DNA of 24,203 nt from a virus (lineage: Duplodnaviria > Caudoviricetes). Every line of letters begins with the position of its first letter. The stretch's first letter is position 1. The notes under the pieces are model-generated. The model had not been told where the DNA came from, searched no databases, and saw only the letters and a list, made by a program, of their open reading frames with translations. Of the stretch, positions 7,955-24,203 are shown piece after piece. The translations under genes and the position numbers were made by a program. The stretch covers positions 1 through 24,203 of IMG/VR virus record IMGVR_UViG_3300031519_000220; one strand, written 5' to 3'.

Positions 7955-9076
7955 ATGAAAATTACACTTAAAAGAACAGACGAACAAATCGAACTGGTTA
8001 AGGCAATGGCTTCCAAGAACAGGGAAGTTGCATATGAAGCTCAAATGGCATTAGCTGAATTTATCGGCCCTGTCTTAGCAGAGGTCATTAATCAAGCTCC
8101 CACATTGAGCAATATGTTTTCGAAATTTTCGTTCAACGAAAATGAATCGCCAAGCATTCCGCTTGATTTGTACTACGACATTACTGCTCCTGATTATGTG
8201 AAGGTCTATAGTGCCTCTCAACCAGGCGGTATGCCCACCAATACTGTAACTCCTACAGCAAGCGAAATGAAATTCTCGACCTATCGTCTTGATAGTGCCA
8301 TTGATTTCGAAAAGCGCTACGCTGCTCAGTCACGTATGGATGTTGTTAGCAAATCTTTCACAAGGATTGCTCAGGAAATCATGCTCAAGCAGGAAGATAC
8401 TTCTGCCAGCTTGATTCTCGGAAGTCTCATTGGTGCAGCTACAAACGGAAAGAAGCATGTTAATAAAGCTGCTGGAACAACAATCATTCTTGACGATTTT
8501 AATAAGCTCTTGACTCTCGCAAAGAGGATCAACACAGCTTGGACAGGCGGAACACCTGAGAGTCGAATCAAGGGGATTACTGATCTTATCGTTTCTCCTG
8601 AAATTGTACAGGGTCTTCGTGAAATGGCTTATAATCCAGTTAATACAAAAGACTCTGGTGGTGGAGCTGCCGCAGCTGGCAATCCTCCAATTGCCGCTAC
8701 CGACGAGATGCGCAATGCAATCTATTCAAATGCTGGTATTCCTGAGTTCTACGGGGTTTCCATCATGGAAATCAATGAGCTTGGGCCTAATCAGAAGTTC
8801 ACTAAGGTGTATGAAGCACTTGGTGGTGATTTTGGTAGCGGTTCTGGTACATTTTCAGCCGCAGCTGATGATATCGTTATTGGTATCGATAAGTCTCGCG
8901 AGTCCTTGTTCCGTGCAGTTGCTACCGATAGTGAAACTGGAGGAGAGTTTGCTCTTGTAGCCGATGATCAATACAGTGTTCGTCAGCAAAAGATTGGATA
9001 CTTTGGATCTCTCGAAGAAGGACGTATGATCCTTGACGACAGGGTCCTCTCTGGATTAGCTATCAGCGCTACCTAA
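7955..9076 (+). CDS. Major capsid protein (HK97 fold)
   Basis: 373 aa, at the canonical position and followed by a strong terminator; long-helix RIAQEIMLKQED, DLIVSPE and FYGVSIMEI segments typical of MCPs. Confidence 0.88.
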   Translation: MKITLKRTDEQIELVKAMASKNREVAYEAQMALAEFIGPVLAEVINQAPTLSNMFSKFSFNENESPSIPLDLYYDITAPDYVKVYSASQPGGMPTNTVTPTASEMKFSTYRLDSAIDFEKRYAAQSRMDVVSKSFTRIAQEIMLKQEDTSASLILGSLIGAATNGKKHVNKAAGTTIILDDFNKLLTLAKRINTAWTGGTPESRIKGITDLIVSPEIVQGLREMAYNPVNTKDSGGGAAAAGNPPIAATDEMRNAIYSNAGIPEFYGVSIMEINELGPNQKFTKVYEALGGDFGSGSGTFSAAADDIVIGIDKSRESLFRAVATDSETGGEFALVADDQYSVRQQKIGYFGSLEEGRMILDDRVLSGLAISAT

Positions 9077-9191: not shown

Positions 9192-9590
9192 ATGAATAAA
9201 AAAAGAAAGTATGTTAAGAAAACAGAGGCAAAAAAAGAACAGAATCAAGAGATGGAAATCGCTGATGGAGTAAGCACGGAAGGAAGCCATCAAACATTAA
9301 GCGAAATCCTTGGTCAGAAACAAAAGAATCCATTTGAGGTATCCAGCTCTTCGGAGCTTGATGATAAGATGTCAAACATGACACTAATAGATCTTCAGAA
9401 ATTAGCTGTAAAAGCTGGGGTGTTTCCGTCAGGAACAAAACCATCCTTGAAGACAAAGATTCAAAAAGCTTATTCTGCAGCCAATAGGGGGGCAGGAAGG
9501 ATTACTCCTGCTCCAAGTAATCCAATCATGGACCCAAGGTCAAAAGAGGGCATAGAGGCCGCCAGGAAGCTTAAAGAGCTATTGTCGTAA
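9192..9590 (+). CDS. Hypothetical protein with SAP/HeH-like motif
   Basis: MTLIDLQKLAVKAGVFPSGTKPSLKTKI resembles the helix-extension-helix SAP/Rho-N pattern; SD-like AAGGA upstream. Confidence 0.6.
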   Translation: MNKKRKYVKKTEAKKEQNQEMEIADGVSTEGSHQTLSEILGQKQKNPFEVSSSSELDDKMSNMTLIDLQKLAVKAGVFPSGTKPSLKTKIQKAYSAANRGAGRITPAPSNPIMDPRSKEGIEAARKLKELLS

Positions 9591-10231
9591 TGGGCTATAC
9601 CCAGATAGGTAATATAGCATCAGGAATTCTTCAATATCAGTTCGATTATATCACTGGTGCTGAAGAGCAATCCATAGAGCTAAATTTAATATCTGGATCG
9701 CTGAATGGACTAGTTGGAGATTTAAACAATCAATTGAATCAGAATTTTGATATACTAGATGGAGAGGTTTACCCAAAACTTCAAAATGTAGAAATCTCAA
9801 TACTTGAAGATTTATATCTCAGAGACTACAATAATAAGCAGGCCTCAAAGTTACTAAGAGGAGTATATACTACAGATACCGCTGGATCAATTGGGGGAGA
9901 AGCGGATTGGGTAGAAATTAGCGAGGGCGATACCACTATTAGAAGATCTGCGAATTCGAGCGCAAATAGTGCATCCACACGAATTACTTTATCGAGAGAG
10001 TTTAAAAATCTATCCGCAGAAGCAGCTCAAAGAATTAAAGAAGGGGTGTATTCATACAATATGTATGGGGCGTCACCAAGGCAGGTAGCTGGATCGGATG
10101 GATTAAATACAGGAAAAAAGGCTACAAAACATGTAGACTGTGAGCCAACTCCAACTCCTAGTCCTAGTCCATCTCCTAGTCCATCTCCTAGTCCGACTCC
10201 TAGTCCGACTCCGACCCCTACAGCGACTTAA
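9590..10231 (+). CDS. Probable head-tail adaptor with C-terminal Pro-Ser/Thr repeat
   Basis: Position after MCP; helical N-terminus and WVEISEGDTTIRR beta-hairpin typical of adaptor proteins; coupled to the upstream gene via TAATG. Confidence 0.55.
   Translation: MGYTQIGNIASGILQYQFDYITGAEEQSIELNLISGSLNGLVGDLNNQLNQNFDILDGEVYPKLQNVEISILEDLYLRDYNNKQASKLLRGVYTTDTAGSIGGEADWVEISEGDTTIRRSANSSANSASTRITLSREFKNLSAEAAQRIKEGVYSYNMYGASPRQVAGSDGLNTGKKATKHVDCEPTPTPSPSPSPSPSPSPTPSPTPTPTAT
10145..10228 (+). repeat. Low-complexity (PS/PT)n coding repeat
   Basis: CCA ACT CCA ACT CCT AGT CCT AGT CCA TCT... encodes PTPTPSPSPSPSPSPSPTPSPTPTPTAT. Confidence 0.9.
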
Positions 10232-11217
10232 ATTCCATGAAGATCCATTAGGTCTTTCATTGAAAGGCTTCCTCCTTTCTTTTCAGCTTCTTCATGTAGG
10301 TTTTTATCGCTTTGTTTCTTTTCCACACCAAGATACTCAAGATCTTCATTTGTCGCACCCATAATGGTTGATGCTCCAGCTTCTGGATTAGTCAGTTGGT
10401 CTTTAGCTTTTTCTCTAGCGCTATCAGATGCATTTCCAAAATCAAGTAGGGCATCTGGGTCTTTTCTTATTTTTTCTGGGATATTATCGTATCTTTCAAA
10501 AATATTTTTAAATATTCTTGTATAAACAATGGTTTTCAATTGATTATCGGTTAAATCAACGATAGGCTTTCCGAAAAAAGAAACTGGATCGTCACAAAAA
10601 GGAAAATAAATATAAAAGAAATCCTGTAAAATAAGAAGCTTAATATTTTTTTCAGAAAATTTTCCTGAAATATCATTGTAGCTCATTATATATTTAGACA
10701 TAGATTCGGCATCAAGGTCTACAACCTCATTGCCTTTAAAAACTGTATCAGATAAAGCCTTATCCTTAAAGAAAGAATTTAAAATATAGAAATCATTTGC
10801 TCTGCTGCTGGCAAATCTTTCTGCAGTGTGGCCAATAATTTCTTGTTTTTGTATTAGCTTCTCGTTGAGTTTTTCTCGCTCAATCCTCACTGTTTCATTA
10901 TGGGCATCAATTGAGCTTTTAAGATACAAAGCCTTCTTGCTGTTGACTAAATTAGCAATGAATTCAGTTTGTCTCTCTATAAAAATATCGTCATCTTTTT
11001 CCCAGAACCCTTCTTCTATCTGAAAATCGAGGTTCTCTCTTTCTGTAGGAACACCTTTTTTAATGGCATGGCTTAGGTGCTTTTGGTAAACTTGATTATA
11101 CTCTACTTGATCATGAGTAGAGAAATGTTTAATATACACCTTTTTTCCATCTATGTAAGATTCCGAAACACCGATGCTTATATCTCTAAATAAGAGCCTT
11201 GCATCTTCAATTTCCAT
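10228..11217 (-). CDS. Hypothetical protein, candidate tail assembly chaperone (paralog of 11236..12003)
   Basis: 329 aa ORF; shares AIKKGVPT and IIGHTAERFA...FYILNSFF with its neighbour's CIKRGILT and LFNHTADIKA...WYMINLTY. The function is inference. Confidence 0.6.
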   Translation of the reverse strand: MEIEDARLLFRDISIGVSESYIDGKKVYIKHFSTHDQVEYNQVYQKHLSHAIKKGVPTERENLDFQIEEGFWEKDDDIFIERQTEFIANLVNSKKALYLKSSIDAHNETVRIEREKLNEKLIQKQEIIGHTAERFASSRANDFYILNSFFKDKALSDTVFKGNEVVDLDAESMSKYIMSYNDISGKFSEKNIKLLILQDFFYIYFPFCDDPVSFFGKPIVDLTDNQLKTIVYTRIFKNIFERYDNIPEKIRKDPDALLDFGNASDSAREKAKDQLTNPEAGASTIMGATNEDLEYLGVEKKQSDKNLHEEAEKKGGSLSMKDLMDLHGI

Positions 11218-11235
11218 TTACAAAATATGGAACAC

Positions 11236-12003
11236 TTAGATTTTATCTTCTTCTAAATCTTTTTCTAATGATTTAAAGTCTTCTTCTGTTGCATTTGTAC
11301 TAAAATACCAAAAACTAAGAAAAGAAAGAAGCTTAGATCTTAAAGATTCATAAAATTCATCTTCTGACTCTTCTTTTTCATAATAAGAATCTTCTTTTTC
11401 TTCAGCAGTATCTCCTTTAAATAAAGGCTCGTAAAAATCATCTTCATCACTATCTTTTTTTACATAAGTAAGATTTATCATATACCAAAGCAAAGATTTA
11501 TTCTGAGCTTTAATATCTGCAGTATGATTAAATAAAGCTTGGTAAGAAGATTCAAGATCAACAATCCTTTTCCTTGTGTTAATCATATCTTCATCAATTT
11601 CGCTACCCTTCTTTTTATCTGAAGAATTTTTTGTCTTTTTTATATCTAGCTTTAGCCATTTGTTTTGCATTTCGGCAAGTTTAGCATAAAGCCTGGTGAG
11701 TTCTAGGGCATCTTCTTCTGATAGTAAGCCTCCAGTATCAGAGTACTTTTTAGCAAGCATTGCTTTGGTTAAGATCCCCCTCTTAATGCATCTACTCATT
11801 TCGACACTAAATTCCATGTCGGCATCTTCGACTTGTCTTCTGGTAGGCTGGCTTATTCTTATCCTGTGAAGGACATCTTCTTCTACGGTTGAAGTTTCTT
11901 TAACTTCCTCCATCTTCCCAGTCTCTTTATTTTTTCTTTTTTTTGTAGATTCTTTTTCTACTTCTTCTTTTTTATCTACTGTAAATGAGTATACTTCTTT
12001 CAT
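11236..12003 (-). CDS. Hypothetical protein, candidate tail assembly chaperone
   Basis: 255 aa charged helical protein in the inverted cassette. The ORF is solid; the function is inferred. Confidence 0.6.
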   Translation of the reverse strand: MKEVYSFTVDKKEEVEKESTKKRKNKETGKMEEVKETSTVEEDVLHRIRISQPTRRQVEDADMEFSVEMSRCIKRGILTKAMLAKKYSDTGGLLSEEDALELTRLYAKLAEMQNKWLKLDIKKTKNSSDKKKGSEIDEDMINTRKRIVDLESSYQALFNHTADIKAQNKSLLWYMINLTYVKKDSDEDDFYEPLFKGDTAEEKEDSYYEKEESEDEFYESLRSKLLSFLSFWYFSTNATEEDFKSLEKDLEEDKI

Positions 12004-12007
12004 GGTA

Positions 12008-12295
12008 TTATTTGAATTTAAAGCTAATTATAAATTTATCTGAATCGTTTTCAATATTTCTCATAGCATTATTGCCATAATCTAAGATTTTCTTTCTTAG
12101 GTACTTTCTTTTTTCCTCGCCGAAATAATCAGATTGAGATACTAAGCTATGATAGTCCGATGGAATAGATTCGTAAAGTTTCTTAAAGTTAATAGAGTGA
12201 TCTATATGCAAGTCCTCTATAAGAGTCAAGAAGTCAACAAATAGTTTCTTGGTATTATCCTTGAGCTCTAAACTTAACATTTTTTCTGCGTCCAT
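12008..12295 (-). CDS. Hypothetical protein, first gene of inverted cassette
   Basis: 95 aa ORF, ATG 6 nt downstream of a -10 box, tightly packed with the next gene. Confidence 0.7.
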   Translation of the reverse strand: MDAEKMLSLELKDNTKKLFVDFLTLIEDLHIDHSINFKKLYESIPSDYHSLVSQSDYFGEEKRKYLRKKILDYGNNAMRNIENDSDKFIISFKFK

Positions 12296-16967: not shown

Positions 16968-19900
16968 ATGCCGTCAATCAATGTAGATGTAGGAGCTAAT
17001 ATTAGCTTGAATCAATCTTCTGTAAGAAGAGTGAGGTCTGATGCAAAATCATTATTGCGGGATGTTACTGGCGGAAGAGGCGGAGTTAATTTTAATGTTA
17101 ACTCAAAGTCTTTTACTCAACCGTTGGGTCAAATTACGAATGCCTCTAATGAATTCAGCAAATCACTTGAAGCTTCAAATGCCAGAGTTTTAGCTTTTGG
17201 AGCTTCAGTTGCAATAATCAATGCTGTTCAGGGGGCATTTAGAAGTTTAGTAGAGACATCCATTGATCTGCAAAAAACTTTAACAGACATTAATGTGGTT
17301 CTAGGCTTATCCTTAGAAGGCATTGAGAATTTTGGAACTAAATTATTTGGTGTTGCAAAAAATACCGCACAAAGTTTTGGCGTTGCGGCAGAAGCAGCTC
17401 TAGAATTTTCAAGGCAAGGCCTATCGGTTGAGGAAACCCTTAGAAGGACAAACGATGCCCTTACATTAACTCGACTAACTGGACTTGATGCATCAGAATC
17501 TGTGTCTGGATTAACTGCGGCAATCAATGGTCTTGGGGATGCAGCATTAACTACCACCGACATTATTGATAAATTTGCAGCGGTTGATGTAAAATTTGCA
17601 GTAAGTGCTGAGGATTTAGTTAGAGCACTAGCAAGAACAGGTGCAGTTGCTAGTGATGTAGGATTAGATATTGATAAATTATCTGGGATGGTAGCAGCCT
17701 TACAGCAAACTACAGCTAGAGGTGGACCAGTTATAGGTAACGCTTTAAAAACAATTTTTACCAGGTTACAGAGGCCAGCCACTATAAGCTCACTAGAAGA
17801 TATGGGGGTTGTTACTAGAGATTTATCTGGCACCCTTTTAAGCGCAGACTCAATACTAACTAATCTCTCTAAATCATTTGATGGATTAAGCCAGTCCCAG
17901 CAATCTAATACTGTTCAAATGGTGGCGGGAATATTTCAAGCAAACATACTTAGGGCATTGCTAAAAGATTTAAAAAAAGACCAAAGTCTTTTTGCTCAAG
18001 CTACAGAAGTTGCTAGTGAAGCAAACGGTGAGGCGGCTAAGAAAACAGAGCAATTAAATAAAACTCTCGCTGCCCTAGGAAGCCAAACTCTTACATCTTT
18101 TCAGGCTCTTGCAAAAACTATTGGTGACATCGCTCTTGCCCCAGGAATTAAAGATATACTTAGCGGATTAAAGTCGGTGTCCGAAACATTCAATGATCTT
18201 TTTGGAGGAGGAGAAAACCAAGGAAATGATTTTGCAAAAGGGTTACTAAAAGGAATAGGTAATATTCTCACTGGCCCTGGACTAGCGGTTCTTGCTGCTG
18301 TTTTTGGAAAACTAATATATAATGTTACAAGATTTGCGGCATCTGGTGTGCAGGATATATTAGGAATAGTTTCTGCAAAAGAAAAGCAAAAAGCAGTAGA
18401 GCAATCAATATTAACCCTACTTCAAACAAATAAAGGAGTAACTGAAAGCTTAAACAAGTTGGAACAAAGCAGGGGAGAGCAAGAAAAATACATCCTTGGA
18501 TTAATAAAAATGCAAACAAGTGCATTAAGGGAGCAAGAGGCCCTAGCAAGGGCTGTAGCTCCTGGTTTAGTGAGGAAAGGTGTTCAGTCAGATCTAATAA
18601 TAAAAAGAGGAGGCAGAACCGCCTCAGGCGGGCTAGTTCCAGAAGAAAATGCGGCATTAGGTTTGATGCCAGCGCAAAAAGAAAGAATAGGGGCATTTAA
18701 GGGAGGATACTCTCCAGGGGCAGTAAGCACAATGGATGTAAAAGGCATGGGCACTGTTGTATATAACAAAGCCGAAACGGTTAAAAAGTTCCCAAATTTT
18801 TCTCAACCTGCAATTATGCCTCCAGAAAAAAGCAGGGCAGGAAAAAACTACAAAGAGAAGTTTTCAAGCACTCACGGCTTTAACCCATATGCAAACGACG
18901 GACTCGTTCCAAATTTTGGATTAAGACCAAATAGGCAATTGCTAAATAGCATACCTAATATGAAATTGCTAACCTCTCCGCTTGGTTATTCTAAGTTTAA
19001 TAGTGATACAGATTTTGCGAAAAAAACTCTAGCTATATCAGAACTAGAAAGAATGCGATACGGAGGAAAACAAGCGAGATCTAGATATGCGCATCAAGAA
19101 GGAACTTTAAAATTTGACACAGATGTTGAGCATTTAAGAGGGGGGATTTTTACAACTAGAATAAGAGATAGCTTAGGAAGAGAAAAAGAGTTAAGCTTAG
19201 GCAAGCTACTAGAAAAAGCTGGAATAAAATCAGTAAGAACAGAATTAGAACTAGGTAGAATTCCATATGCAGAGGCAACTAATACTCCTCTAGATAAAAA
19301 ACTTCCAGAAGATATAACAAAAGTTCTAGCAAATACAAAAAATAGCAATAATGACAGAAAAGGAGAACTGGGAGAAGCATCTTATTTAAAAGTATTTGGA
19401 GCAAAAGATAAAAATGGAAATCTAATAAAAGATGGAGACCAGTTTGCGGAGACAGCTATAGCGGGATATGTAGGTACAACAAAAAATTCTAGAGTAGACG
19501 CTATAATGAAGGGGGCAAAATCTGCAGAGATAAAAGCTGGGGGAGCCAGCCTTACCGATGTTGCCCAAAAAGGAATGAGTTTATATTCAAATCGTGGATT
19601 TATTAATGAAATAATGAACGTAGGAGGAAGAGAAATTCAAAGAGGAACACATCACGGAATGCCTCAAGTTGCCGAAAGAGGAAAGCAAATCATGTATGTA
19701 GCCGAGCAGATGAGGCTCAAGAATATGAAAAACTCATTACTTGAACTGCATAAATTAAAAATGTGGCCAGCAAGAGATGGATCTCATGAAGCGAATATAA
19801 GATATAAATATGCTAAAGATTTGGCTGGCGGCGATAAACTAGGGTCAGCAATCATGCAAGGAAGGTTTAAGGTTACAGATGCAGACAGAAAAATGCTTGA

Positions 19901-22900
19901 TGACTATAGCTTGCACGATGGATTGGTTCCTAATGCTTCGGCTGGATTCATTCCTCGTTATAATCCAGATGCATTTGATAATGATAGAACTTATCAGTTT
20001 ATGCAAAACAAGCATAAAGAGGTAACTAGACCATTTTTTGAAAGACTCAGGGCGGGAGAGGCATACGGAAGTACGGATGCAAGGATTAATGATAGCTTAA
20101 TGAAGAGTGGCGAAGGATCTCCTGCCGAAGGAACATTTAAATCGACTGAAAGAGGAGAGCGCAAAATAGACGCACCAAGAGCTTTATCATTTTTTGAAAA
20201 ATCTGCAAAAAAAATTGGGCCAGTTGCGGCTGCTCAATTTATGATAGATCACGAAATGATGACAGATAGGGAAGCTCAAAAAGCAATACAAGATTTAAGA
20301 GGAGAAGCCGCACGAAGATCAGAAGGTGGCACTCAATCTAAAATGCCTATAGTTAAGCATTTAGATGAAGTAGAAAAGAATGCAGGTAAATTAAAATTTT
20401 TCGAAAAACAATATCCTGAAGATGCAGCAAAGTTTATGAGGGGTGTAGTCACAGGGGAGTCCGAAACGAGAAAAGGATATAAAAAAATACTCCCTAAAAA
20501 ATCAGGGCCTCAAATTGGAACAGACAGAATAAGATCAAGAAGAATGTCTCTACATAACTTAATTAGAAATAAAACAAAATCGCCGCATGGAGAATACAAA
20601 AACCTTTCTGATTTCCGAAATCAAACAGGGGCATTTGCTAGCAGCAATACTAGTTCAACTGAATCAGTTTTACGAGAAGAACGAGCAAGAAGAACTAGGG
20701 AAGCTTACATGCAGAAGATGCAGAAAGACGAGGGTTCAACTAGTAATCGCAAGTATAATTCTGTAACGGGGCAATTTGGAGCCAACATAGGCACTAAGAC
20801 AAGAAAAGCATTAGTTTCAGAAATAGGCATGGTGCCTGGCCCAGGATATAAGACGATCAACAGGCAAGCCGAAAAAAGTAAAGAACTTAATATCGGGGGG
20901 AATTCAAGTGTTAAATCGGTGTTGCAAGAAAGAACTCGATATAACCCAGAGACATTTAAGCAAGAAAAATTAGGAACAGATAGAGTGCTGTCAGTAGGCG
21001 GGCTTTATTCTCGTGGTGGAGAATCTGGGGCATTAGTACTTAAAAGATTGCTTAAAGAAATAACTTCTGCTGCACGTTCTGGTCAGCCATACACTGCTAT
21101 TGATGCAGGCCCAGTAATAGGGCCAAGGATTCCGTCAGTCATAATAAAAGCAAAAACAGTTTTAGACAGAATAAGGGAAAAAGAAGCAAAGAAGGCAAAT
21201 ACAGGAATGGCTCATACCAATATACCTCATATGAGGCTCCAAGGTTTTTTGACTCCCAGGAAACTGTTCAAAGGGCTGGCATCTAGAAGAAGGGAAAATA
21301 TAACAGAAGGAGGAACGATAAAAAGAGACCAAAGATCTCATTCTCAATATCAATTTGGAGAAGAAGGAGTACTAAAAGATTCGCTTAAGAATCTTTTTAA
21401 GAGCAGCTCGGGCAAATATTTAGGGCGGCGAGGAGAAGAGACTTCTCTTAGGAAGTTTCTTAAGTCACAAGATATTAGATATCTGGAAAAGTCAGTCTAT
21501 GGGGAGGGAGGGTTTAGCTCTGGATTAATACCTAATTTTTCAGAGTACATTTTTGATGCAGATAGAATCGCAGGAAAAGAAAAAAATCCAATACTTAATG
21601 CCATACTAGAAAGCGACAGTCGTATTAAAAAAGATTTGATTATAGGTCCATCTGGAGCAGGAAAAACAGAATATGCAAAAACTTTAGGAAATCCATTTAT
21701 TAATAGTGTTGATGATATAGCAAAAGCCACACAAATAACAATGCTATCTGGAGCAGGCAGAGCAAAAGATGAAAGTATGATGTCCGCTGGCTTGCAAAAA
21801 ATAATATCTTCCGTAAATAATTCAGGGGGGAATATTAACTTTCTTGAGGCAGGGGACGATCAAATAAAGAATCAAAGGCATGGCAGGATAGCTAAAGCTA
21901 TGGAAGGAGCCGCAGGATCAAGCGACCTGAGAAGTGTAGGGCAATTAAAGGGCACTGGGTATGCGCCTCTTAACCAACTTGACTTTATGTCAAAAATTAA
22001 AAAAGTGGCAGGCAGCTTTTCTGTTATAAAAAACCTTGGAGCAGGGAAGGGTTTCTTAAAAAATCAAATTCCAAATTTCGCAAGAGGATTCGGTTTTATG
22101 CCAGAAGATGTAAAATCAAAAATAAGAATGGGTAGAGCGCTTAACCTAGAAAAAAGAAACAGAGCTCTAGAAGGAAGAGACCCCAAATTGTTCGATCAAC
22201 ATTATCCCCATCCTTTTCTTAATAGAGGATCAAAAGAAAGATTAGATTTCCATAGGGCAAAGGGAGATGGACATAATGAGCAAATAATGGAATCAAAATT
22301 AAATTTTAAAAATTTTGAAATAAGTGGGGCGATTAGAAGAGACGCCAATAAGGGGCTAATATCTGAAGAAGAAAAGATTAGATATTCAAATTTATTAAAA
22401 GATAGTAAGAATCCAAATGGAGAATTAATAAATTTAGATAAAAAATACATAGGGGGAACATCATTAGGGGGAATGTCTGAAACAGACAAACTTCAAAAAT
22501 TAAGCCGCTATCAAATGCAATTATCTAATTTACAAAAAACGAAAAAAGATTTAAAGTCTCTTGACTTTAAAGATGGATACGATGATTTTGAATATGCTGC
22601 AAAATTAAGAAACTCAATAGTAAATCAAGAAAGTATTCTTCCTAAGGGCCCAGCATTAAAAGAATTAAAATCATATCAAAAACTAAAAAATACATATTCC
22701 CAATATTTAGACAGAACAAGATACTTGGACTCAGATACAAGATTGTCAATAGGGGCAGTTAGAAAATTCGGAAGAAACCCTCATGAAAAAGTAATAAATG
22801 ATTTGACTGGCACACACCTAGGGTCTAAGGGAGGTATAGCGAGATCAATTGGGGCGAAAGATGGCGACGAAGTATTTGATTACTTGACATATCAAACAAA

Positions 22901-24203
22901 AAAAGAATTACTTGAGGGGAAGGGTGTTGGTCATGTACTAAGAGACAACAACAGGAAGAGATATCTGAGCGATGGATTAGTTCCTAATTTTGGAATATTA
23001 AGCAACTTAACGAAAAGGTTTAAGACTTTTCCTCAGCAAAGTTCTCAAATTCATGCTTACAAAAAAGAACAAGATTTAAAAAATAATCCAAATTTCAGAA
23101 TGGGAATGGCGAAAGAGATGTACAACTCAATGTCCAATCCGCGTAGACAAATACGAAACAATCTCCCCGACTCATTAAGCATCAAGAATTGGATTAAAAA
23201 AAATAGAGAATTCCATGGTTCAAATATGGGGATAAAATCTGGAGTAGTTCAGGCTGAAGGTCTGGCAAAAAAAGATATCGCTAAAAACCAGATAGAAAAA
23301 ACAAAACATGAAACCTCATTAAGGTTAGGAGCGGCTAGACGTGTCGCTCTAAGCGGACCAGCGCTCCCAACAATAGGAGAAAAGATTGCAGGAGCAGAAA
23401 AGAAATCATTGGCCAGGAGGATATGGAAAGGCTCTGAGCAAGAAGGATGGCAATCACTTGAAAAACGAAGACAAAAGGTTTCCGCAGGGCCAGGAGTAGG
23501 TCATATGTATAGTATACTGCCTAAAGAAAAAGGATACAACGCTCCTTTTGAACCTAATACCATGTTAAAATTTAAAGGAAATGAAGGGCATGACATAGAA
23601 TCTAGATACAGAACAAGAGGCCGCAACGCATCATATAAAGAACCCGCTAGGCATGGAACGGTTTACGACAAAGTGCTAGAGGTGGGAGAAATTGCATCCA
23701 CGAAACAAGGGCAATCTGTATACAAAAGAATAATTAATGAAATATTAGCTTCAGCTAAATCAGGAAGACCTTATACCGTACTAGATGCTGGGCATATAGT
23801 AGGAGAAAGAATCCCCAGCGCTATAGTTGGACTAAAGAAGATCCTTGACAGGCGAAGAGAAAAATCAGAATTCTTTATTCCTAAAATTAGACTCGAAGGA
23901 GAAATGAATTCTCCAGAGTTTTTGGAAAGAAAAATAAAGATGAATAATGCTCCTGAGGGTGGATTGTTCGGAAAGCAGGGACAAAAATTCAAAAATGCAC
24001 TAGATACTCTTGATCCTACGGGGCAAAGAATCAGCCATACAAACAATGTAAGGCTGGAAAGCTTAAAATTCGAGTTAAACGAAGGGTTTGTTCCTAACTT
24101 TGCAAAGCTATCAACATTAAGGGGAAAACTTTTTAATAAAAAACAAAAAAAGGATGAAGGGTTAAGATTTAATACAACAAAAGAAGGGTTCAGGATTCCT
24201 CAT
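16968..24203 (+). CDS. Tape measure protein with multi-domain cargo region, 3' truncated (>=2412 aa)
   Basis: ATG 16968 with SD; the frame appears open to the window end (I translated 18600-24203 fully with no stop, and no stop-terminated ORF from 16968 is in the track). N-terminal TP901-type core EFSRQGLS...IIDKFAAVD...TARGGPVIGNALKTIFTRL...LEDMGV and a hydrophobic segment near 18270-18370. Confidence 0.9.
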   Translation, partial: MPSINVDVGANISLNQSSVRRVRSDAKSLLRDVTGGRGGVNFNVNSKSFTQPLGQITNASNEFSKSLEASNARVLAFGASVAIINAVQGAFRSLVETSIDLQKTLTDINVVLGLSLEGIENFGTKLFGVAKNTAQSFGVAAEAALEFSRQGLSVEETLRRTNDALTLTRLTGLDASESVSGLTAAINGLGDAALTTTDIIDKFAAVDVKFAVSAEDLVRALARTGAVASDVGLDIDKLSGMVAALQQTTARGGPVIGNALKTIFTRLQRPATISSLEDMGVVTRDLSGTLLSADSILTNLSKSFDGLSQSQQSNTVQMVAGIFQANILRALLKDLKKDQSLFAQATEVASEANGEAAKKTEQLNKTLAALGSQTLTSFQALAKTIGDIALAPGIKDILSGLKSVSETFNDLFGGGENQGNDFAKGLLKGIGNILTGPGLAVLAAVFGKLIYNVTRFAASGVQDILGIVSAKEKQKAVEQSILTLLQTNKGVTESLNKLEQSRGEQEKYILGLIKMQTSALREQEALARAVAPGLVRKGVQSDLIIKRGGRTASGGLVPEENAALGLMPAQKERIGAFKGGYSPGAVSTMDVKGMGTVVYNKAETVKKFPNFSQPAIMPPEKSRAGKNYKEKFSSTHGFNPYANDGLVPNFGLRPNRQLLNSIPNMKLLTSPLGYSKFNSDTDFAKKTLAISELERMRYGGKQARSRYAHQEGTLKFDTDVEHLRGGIFTTRIRDSLGREKELSLGKLLEKAGIKSVRTELELGRIPYAEATNTPLDKKLPEDITKVLANTKNSNNDRKGELGEASYLKVFGAKDKNGNLIKDGDQFAETAIAGYVGTTKNSRVDAIMKGAKSAEIKAGGASLTDVAQKGMSLYSNRGFINEIMNVGGREIQRGTHHGMPQVAERGKQIMYVAEQMRLKNMKNSLLELHKLKMWPARDGSHEANIRYKYAKDLAGGDKLGSAIMQGRFKVTDADRKMLDDYSLHDGLVPNASAGFIPRYNPDAFDNDRTYQFMQNKHKEVTRPFFERLRAGEAYGSTDARINDSLMKSGEGSPAEGTFKSTERGERKIDAPRALSFFEKSAKKIGPVAAAQFMIDHEMMTDREAQKAIQDLRGEAARRSEGGTQSKMPIVKHLDEVEKNAGKLKFFEKQYPEDAAKFMRGVVTGESETRKGYKKILPKKSGPQIGTDRIRSRRMSLHNLIRNKTKSPHGEYKNLSDFRNQTGAFASSNTSSTESVLREERARRTREAYMQKMQKDEGSTSNRKYNSVTGQFGANIGTKTRKALVSEIGMVPGPGYKTINRQAEKSKELNIGGNSSVKSVLQERTRYNPETFKQEKLGTDRVLSVGGLYSRGGESGALVLKRLLKEITSAARSGQPYTAIDAGPVIGPRIPSVIIKAKTVLDRIREKEAKKANTGMAHTNIPHMRLQGFLTPRKLFKGLASRRRENITEGGTIKRDQRSHSQYQFGEEGVLKDSLKNLFKSSSGKYLGRRGEETSLRKFLKSQDIRYLEKSVYGEGGFSSGLIPNFSEYIFDADRIAGKEKNPILNAILESDSRIKKDLIIGPSGAGKTEYAKTLGNPFINSVDDIAKATQITMLSGAGRAKDESMMSAGLQKIISSVNNSGGNINFLEAGDDQIKNQRHGRIAKAMEGAAGSSDLRSVGQLKGTGYAPLNQLDFMSKIKKVAGSFSVIKNLGAGKGFLKNQIPNFARGFGFMPEDVKSKIRMGRALNLEKRNRALEGRDPKLFDQHYPHPFLNRGSKERLDFHRAKGDGHNEQIMESKLNFKNFEISGAIRRDANKGLISEEEKIRYSNLLKDSKNPNGELINLDKKYIGGTSLGGMSETDKLQKLSRYQMQLSNLQKTKKDLKSLDFKDGYDDFEYAAKLRNSIVNQESILPKGPALKELKSYQKLKNTYSQYLDRTRYLDSDTRLSIGAVRKFGRNPHEKVINDLTGTHLGSKGGIARSIGAKDGDEVFDYLTYQTKKELLEGKGVGHVLRDNNRKRYLSDGLVPNFGILSNLTKRFKTFPQQSSQIHAYKKEQDLKNNPNFRMGMAKEMYNSMSNPRRQIRNNLPDSLSIKNWIKKNREFHGSNMGIKSGVVQAEGLAKKDIAKNQIEKTKHETSLRLGAARRVALSGPALPTIGEKIAGAEKKSLARRIWKGSEQEGWQSLEKRRQKVSAGPGVGHMYSILPKEKGYNAPFEPNTMLKFKGNEGHDIESRYRTRGRNASYKEPARHGTVYDKVLEVGEIASTKQGQSVYKRIINEILASAKSGRPYTVLDAGHIVGERIPSAIVGLKKILDRRREKSEFFIPKIRLEGEMNSPEFLERKIKMNNAPEGGLFGKQGQKFKNALDTLDPTGQRISHTNNVRLESLKFELNEGFVPNFAKLSTLRGKLFNKKQKKDEGLRFNTTKEGFRIPH
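18630..24101 (+). repeat. Dispersed peptide repeat G-[LF]-[VI]-P-N-F within tape measure gene
   Basis: GLVPE 18630, GLVPNF 18900, GLVPNA 19920 + GFIPRY 19944, GLIPNF 21522, GFLKNQIPNF 22050-22079, GLVPNF 22974, GFVPNF 24084. Confidence 0.9.

Follow-up and report, generated by a model that had tools for sequence, protein, structure and literature searches.

The tape measure protein and its module array

The window (the whole stretch of DNA analysed, 24,203 nucleotides) is a phage structural operon, in which the following genes frame the locus of interest:

1119-2987, terminase large subunit (PHROG, E 4e-24)
7955-9076, major head protein (weak PHROG match)
16968..24203, plus strand, tape measure protein (TMP), at least 2412 aa, the last ORF, open at the 3' contig end

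The ORF starting at 16968 has matches to 16 tape measure families in PHROG (best E 4e-44), and both its position after the tail genes and its PhageMin_Tail domain (PF10145, aa 131–321, E 6.1e-24, 85.4 bits against a cut-off of 33.2) identify it as a TMP. This N-terminal domain is followed by one hydrophobic segment near aa 433 and then by an array of modules delimited by linkers; according to hydropathy, 36 of 42 TMPs have such a segment at aa 400–433, ahead of the array, and just 1 of the 42 has one inside it. From aa 645 the window TMP is punctuated by [IV]PNF motifs, 5 of which are observed against 0.016 expected (2000 shuffles of the TMP), and the family-wide linker consensus is A[AS]xG[FY][IV]PNFA (372 motif instances). 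Two short conserved units (70–80 aa; window 18618–18917 and a unit after the array in relatives), which may be structural or protease-related, flank the array in most of the family's TMPs. Elsewhere in the window, three minus-strand genes without family match (10228–12295) split the structural operon between the head and tail genes, and the ORF at 9590–10231 ends at its C-terminus in a Pro-Ser/Pro-Thr repeat (10120–10231).

One module of this array had been described in a first-pass annotation as a stand-alone P-loop kinase-like domain bounded exactly by two linkers. Its features, with residues numbered within the module (hereafter the cassette), are:

21522..21539, plus strand, upstream linker GLIPNF (from the translation, fitting the family consensus)
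21540..22049, plus strand, predicted P-loop kinase cassette, 170 aa, TMP aa 1525–1694
21555..21563, plus strand, DxD motif (D6, D8) closing the first strand, with D8 predicted to serve as catalytic base
21645..21668, plus strand, Walker A GPSGAGKT, TMP aa 1560–1567; K42 at 21663-21665
21747..21749, plus strand, S70, occupying the Walker B position; HHalign sets it on Glu133 of zeta-1
21876..21887, plus strand, lid motif R113-x-x-R116 in helix 106–121, between strands 99–103 and 160–164
21924..21932, plus strand, D129-x-R131 motif after the lid helix, recognized by conservation
22050..22079, plus strand, degenerate downstream linker GFLKNQIPNF (from the translation)
22080..22973, plus strand, next module, which we take by eye, from its motif, to be PD-(D/E)XK-like; without Pfam match

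The exact bounding holds on the left and nearly so on the right, since the downstream linker is a looser copy. The translation agrees with the Walker A at 21645–21668, with the FINSVDDI reported after it and with the arginines placed at 21876 (aa 1637, R113) and 21885 (aa 1640, R116), and the PF10145 domain, the linkers and the existence of a cassette family bear out the view of a discrete module within a TMP. The Walker A alone is weak evidence, because the bare pattern GxxxxGK[ST] is expected 0.28 times by chance in the TMP (2000 shuffles); a stricter pattern including the hydrophobic strand is expected 0.0005 times, but this pattern was picked after the sequence had been seen. Judging from the alignment, the decisive support for the module is conservation, with G39, G41 and K42 present in 40/40 aligned relatives.

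Distribution and conservation of the cassette

The profile built from the window and its first relative retrieved 16 viral loci, in all of which the match (158 aa) lies inside an ORF of 2172–3023 aa, is flanked on both sides by the G[YF][IV]PNF linker and forms the first or second module of the array. An exhaustive search yielded 57 representatives at 50% clustering, 56 of them confirmed by the family HMM and together containing 57 copies of the cassette, most of them in TMPs. Thirty-nine copies follow a PNF linker, 5 follow FAxGG, 5 are preceded by sequence that lacks a linker and 8 are N-terminal, i.e. a linker stands directly ahead of the cassette in 44 of the 49 copies with upstream sequence; PNF linkers are found on both sides of 28 of the 57. 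The N-terminal copies comprise 6 full-length free-standing proteins of 147–159 aa and 2 fragments, thus the cassette can exist without a TMP carrier. The one free-standing gene viewed in its DNA (L041, 8001–8412) lies outside any TMP, has its own ribosome-binding-like site and stop, and is frameshifted near the start; genes labelled by eye as terminase, ClpP-like, ERCC4-like and GDP-mannose dehydratase-like are present on the same phage contig. In a second TMP subfamily (L072 6423–14726; P0041, P0042, P0054–P0056), FAxGG replaces the PNF linkers around the kinase cassette. The two linker types have an AxGG core in common, and one protein of this subfamily (P0042) carries the cassette in two tandem copies.

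With the window's own pre-linker unit, 18 TMP loci were fetched, of which 16 were examined, 2 of these being cut off at the 3' end. The kinase cassette is found in 0 of these 16 TMPs closest to the window, an absence that holds for the 14 not cut off, and the cassette-free set includes the closest N-terminal relatives of the window TMP (48–51% identity). A quick tree built from the N-termini of 54 TMPs (41 with and 13 without the cassette) requires 2 changes in the presence label, which fits an old, widespread cargo that would have been lost or gained in few lineages; as the two sets were gathered differently, the tree gives no cassette frequency. No cultured relative or host was found (INPHARED, no match). 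The cassette is a real, conserved and exchangeable module of the TMP.

Among 40 diverse relatives, D8, G39, G41, K42, R116 and R131 are invariant (40/40), while D6, R113 and D129 are each present in 39. The conservation of Walker A among homologous modules, on which the first-pass annotation had staked its kinase assignment, is therefore seen at G39, G41 and K42, the last lying at the start of a predicted helix (42–48) that follows strand 30–35. The first Gly of the motif is replaced by Ala in 10/40, and the residue after GKT is Glu in the window copy vs Thr in 38/40. FINSVDDI, considered as a source of the conserved acid, was ruled out, with D58 kept in 7/40 and D59 in 26/40; the conserved acids are D8 and D6 instead. 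Values of dN/dS range from 0.03 to 0.26 (41/45 computable pairs; 10 of 16 loci, near-duplicates dropped), and on these estimates the cassette is under strong purifying selection. A chance Walker A in a spacer, to which the expectation of 0.28 bare motifs would lend some credit, is excluded by this selection together with the free-standing copies.

The acidic Walker B residue at the end of the third strand, which belongs to the definition of the P-loop kinase class, is absent, the position being occupied by Ser in 37/40 relatives and by Asp in 1/40. It could be argued from this replacement, as well as from the small size, the little substrate-binding insert and the linker-free fusion, in L017 and several representatives, to the nuclease-like domain that follows, that the cassette is a weakly active or inactive nucleotide-binding P-loop domain, which would sequester a nucleotide signal or switch the adjoining module. 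However, the invariant residues are those expected for catalysis (D8, K42, R116, R131), and a fixed partner is not needed, since free-standing genes exist and the neighbors vary. We consider such a domain unlikely, and the cassette to be probably an active enzyme.

Predicted fold and active-site layout

The AlphaFold model of the cassette (pLDDT 94) displays a P-loop kinase layout with an RxxR lid. The P-loop fold, without which the kinase assignment would have fallen, is thus predicted; the lid of this class has been defined as helical, located between strands 4 and 5 and carrying Rx(2-3)R (PMC1876218), and in the predicted structure R113 and R116 lie on helix 106–121. P-loop kinases account for 48 of the 50 best structural matches, with modest Z-scores (8.2 at most), and we regard membership in the P-loop kinase-class fold as very highly probable on the basis of the model. 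Sequence searches of the PDB give a different order, in which Clp and other AAA+ proteins come first (best E 3.9e-4, single sequence) and would suggest a fragment of a Clp-like ATPase. These matches are centered on Walker A, the modelled lid is of the kinase type and no AAA+ protein is found among the best 50 structural matches; such a fragment, like the chance motif in a spacer discussed above, is largely refuted and extremely improbable. Profile searches that had been proposed as a check did not place the window module in a known family: it passes no Pfam cut-off, with AAA_33 (PF13671) reaching 12.9 bits vs 27 over 18 residues.

The layout is not the standard one of NMP or polynucleotide kinases, since the conserved Asp comes ahead of Walker A and a Ser takes the place of the Walker B acid; of the earlier assignment to an NMP/polynucleotide/zeta-type arrangement, the P-loop kinase core and the arginine lid are retained. 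The closest counterpart appears to be the kinase domain of Neisseria gonorrhoeae zeta-1 (PDB 6EPG/6EPH/6EPI), in which, according to Rocker et al. (PMC5923241), two blocks of sequence have exchanged places compared with the other zeta toxins; Asp56, the likely base, precedes the P-loop lysine K115, and Arg175 and Arg181 form a phosphate-binding patch. As in zeta-1, the strand with the catalytic Asp comes before Walker A in the cassette model, which aligns from 1 to 170 to residues 49–222 of 6eph, making zeta-1 the sole structure aligned across the whole model among the matches listed. If residue 1 is set on 49 with no gap, D8 falls on Asp56, in agreement with the local sequences (RYVYDSD in the family, RYVCAD in zeta-1); from the range start and this local similarity we infer that D8 corresponds to Asp56, giving the predicted correspondences D8/K42/R116 with D56/K115/R175. 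R131 is likely to be the counterpart of Arg181, judging from its order, since it lies outside the aligned block. HHalign of the cassette against a zeta-1 profile (120 of 175 zeta-1 relatives) covers 73 columns with a probability of 28%, setting R116 on R175 and S70 on E133 and not reaching the N-terminal strand.

The two proteins differ in many respects. Identity is just 12–14%, zeta-1 has Glu133 where the cassette has Ser, its substrate insert is about 25 residues longer, and the cassette adds the invariant motifs DxD and DxR, lacks an OB domain, has no antitoxin in view (the contig ends inside the TMP) and sits in a TMP array. The catalytic Asp and the P-loop Lys are separated by 34 residues in the cassette vs 59 in zeta-1, therefore much of the region of the UNAM-binding K59 and N75 is missing; K59, N75 and E133 are not matched, there being no conserved Lys at D+3 and a Ser for the Glu. 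Cross-HMM searches between the cassette family and the zeta-1 relatives gave 0/120 and 0/40 matches, Pfam Zeta_toxin (PF06414) gives the window module no match with an E of 1 or below, and it is not among the 25 of 63 Pfam families listed for 40 members. Thus, the cassette is zeta-1-like in its predicted layout but without family membership at the sequence level, and the zeta-1 substrate cannot therefore be transferred to it. These same results bear on whether it could be a true zeta-type UDP-sugar kinase, which would weaken peptidoglycan synthesis or help lysis, in the producing cell or after injection. The rewired layout and the catalytic positions match zeta-1, and Iyer et al. propose such a role for the zeta-like kinases they describe in phage polyvalent proteins (PMC5512222), but with sequence-level membership absent, the K59/N75 region shortened and not conserved, and no Zeta_toxin match, we hold this to be quite unlikely.

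Bacterial and T4 polynucleotide kinases (4GP7; T4 PseT) also possess a P-loop kinase core with an RxxR lid, and their top Z of 8.2 is shared with zeta-1. This tie keeps alive the alternative of a polynucleotide kinase for 5'-OH ends of RNA or DNA, which might repair tRNA after cuts by host nucleases, or else protect or process the incoming genome at its ends, acting together with HAD phosphatase or nuclease modules carried by that same TMP. The general-base Asp of polynucleotide kinases lies on the strand after Walker A. In the cassette family, no Asp is invariant there (the D58 and D59 counts given above), and the structural alignments to these kinases begin at residue 26–27, leaving out the invariant D8; the HHalign match to the T4 kinase domain is confined to 20 columns around Walker A. 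A combination of such a kinase with HAD has precedent, as reported in PMC7824862, but the window has no fused HAD domain, HAD-like modules occur in just 2 proteins among the 260 clustered segments, and the nuclease-like cluster also occurs in TMPs without the kinase. A polynucleotide kinase is accordingly a possible but rather doubtful reading.

Possible function, precedents and companion modules

We give about even chances to the complete proposal that a minimal zeta-1-like P-loop kinase cassette, likely delivered with the TMP, uses ATP to phosphorylate a hydroxyl of a small molecule that bears phosphate, either a nucleotide or a nucleotide-sugar. Since the invariant Asp occupies the zeta-1 position, such an acceptor is slightly favored by analogy over the ends of nucleic acids. 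In this reaction ATP would be held by the P-loop and K42 and covered by R113, D8 would act as the base deprotonating the acceptor hydroxyl, R116 and R131 would bind phosphates, and D6 might replace the acid lacking at Walker B. The location in a TMP suggests delivery with the genome, and delivery at infection is likely; the cassette would be packaged in the tail, ejected, and would act early, before phage gene expression, altering host pools of nucleotides or cell-wall precursors or disarming a nucleotide-based defense. A bolder and rather improbable extension is that the TMP of these widespread uncultured phages is a polyprotein magazine, in which the G[FY][IV]PNF/FAxGG linkers would be both protease sites and recombination points and the modules would be freed as enzymes in the host, the new minimal kinase neutralizing a nucleotide defense signal or draining a nucleotide-sugar pool before phage gene expression.

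Phage polyvalent proteins, as presented by Iyer et al. 2017 (PMC5512222), are big virion-associated chains of domains (GNAT, ART, protein kinase and zeta-like kinase), a repertoire like that of the TMP arrays, and in some cases have stand-alone cassettes nearby, like the free-standing kinase copies. They include zeta-like kinases fused to MuF, by analogy a precedent for a P-loop kinase as virion cargo. The chassis differs, being here a TMP with a repeated linker; the word 'tape' is absent from the main text of PMC5512222, whose FTP supplements could list such proteins. In actinobacterial contractile injection systems (PMC13277306), Sle1-type effectors likewise combine a TMP-related protein with an exchangeable functional domain, but these systems are bacterial rather than phage, and one functional domain is described there instead of a linker-delimited array. 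Literature listings, with most subscription journals outside their coverage, gave no report of a linker-delimited enzyme array in phage TMPs. The theme of polyvalent virion proteins is known and the TMP array is a variant of it, and the best reading of the cassette is a new minimal zeta-1-like kinase family carried as virion cargo in a polyvalent TMP. The predicted family would be compact, with a rare rewired active site and Ser at Walker B, and it can be assayed as is, given the naturally occurring free-standing copies of about 150 aa. The findings also draw attention to TMPs as vehicles for exchangeable enzyme arrays, whose visible linker makes it simple to search uncultured phages for anti-host or anti-defense enzymes acting before phage gene expression; such an array may also offer a natural means of delivering proteins into bacteria.

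The array is a family-wide cassette system (window 18918–24203; L001–L040, L072; P0003–P0057), in which the number of modules reaches about ten in one protein (L036) and the length 4831 aa in another (P0009). The segments between linkers, 260 in number, fall into 71 clusters, the largest being the kinase cassette (44), a PD-(D/E)XK-like group (41) and the two short flanking units. As in polyvalent proteins, several unrelated enzymatic domains are combined and vary between relatives, with labels besides GNAT given by eye; one GNAT module scores above the Pfam cut-off. Pfam gave no names to the modules that we presume, from motifs seen by eye, to be ART-like, HAD-like, Ser/Thr-kinase-like and nuclease-like. 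A Ser/Thr-kinase-like module follows the kinase in P0003, P0006, P0021, P0025 and P0026 (GxGxxG, VxVK, DxHxxN and DxG by eye), and modules resembling ADP-ribosyltransferases (by eye) and one of the PGDYG family (E 2.8e-5, below cut-off) were noted at P0009 1976–2149, L036 12086–12625 and L036 14597–15139. HAD-like modules (DxDxT, by eye) lie at P0040 536–689 and L009 11723–12325, the former directly ahead of the kinase in an arrangement resembling a split PNK-phosphatase. Modules 2 and 5 of the window (about 20970–21450 and 23650–24080) end in related domains with the motif YTxxDAGxxxGxRIP, GNAT-like by eye and without Pfam match, which are also seen at P0009 1478–1642.
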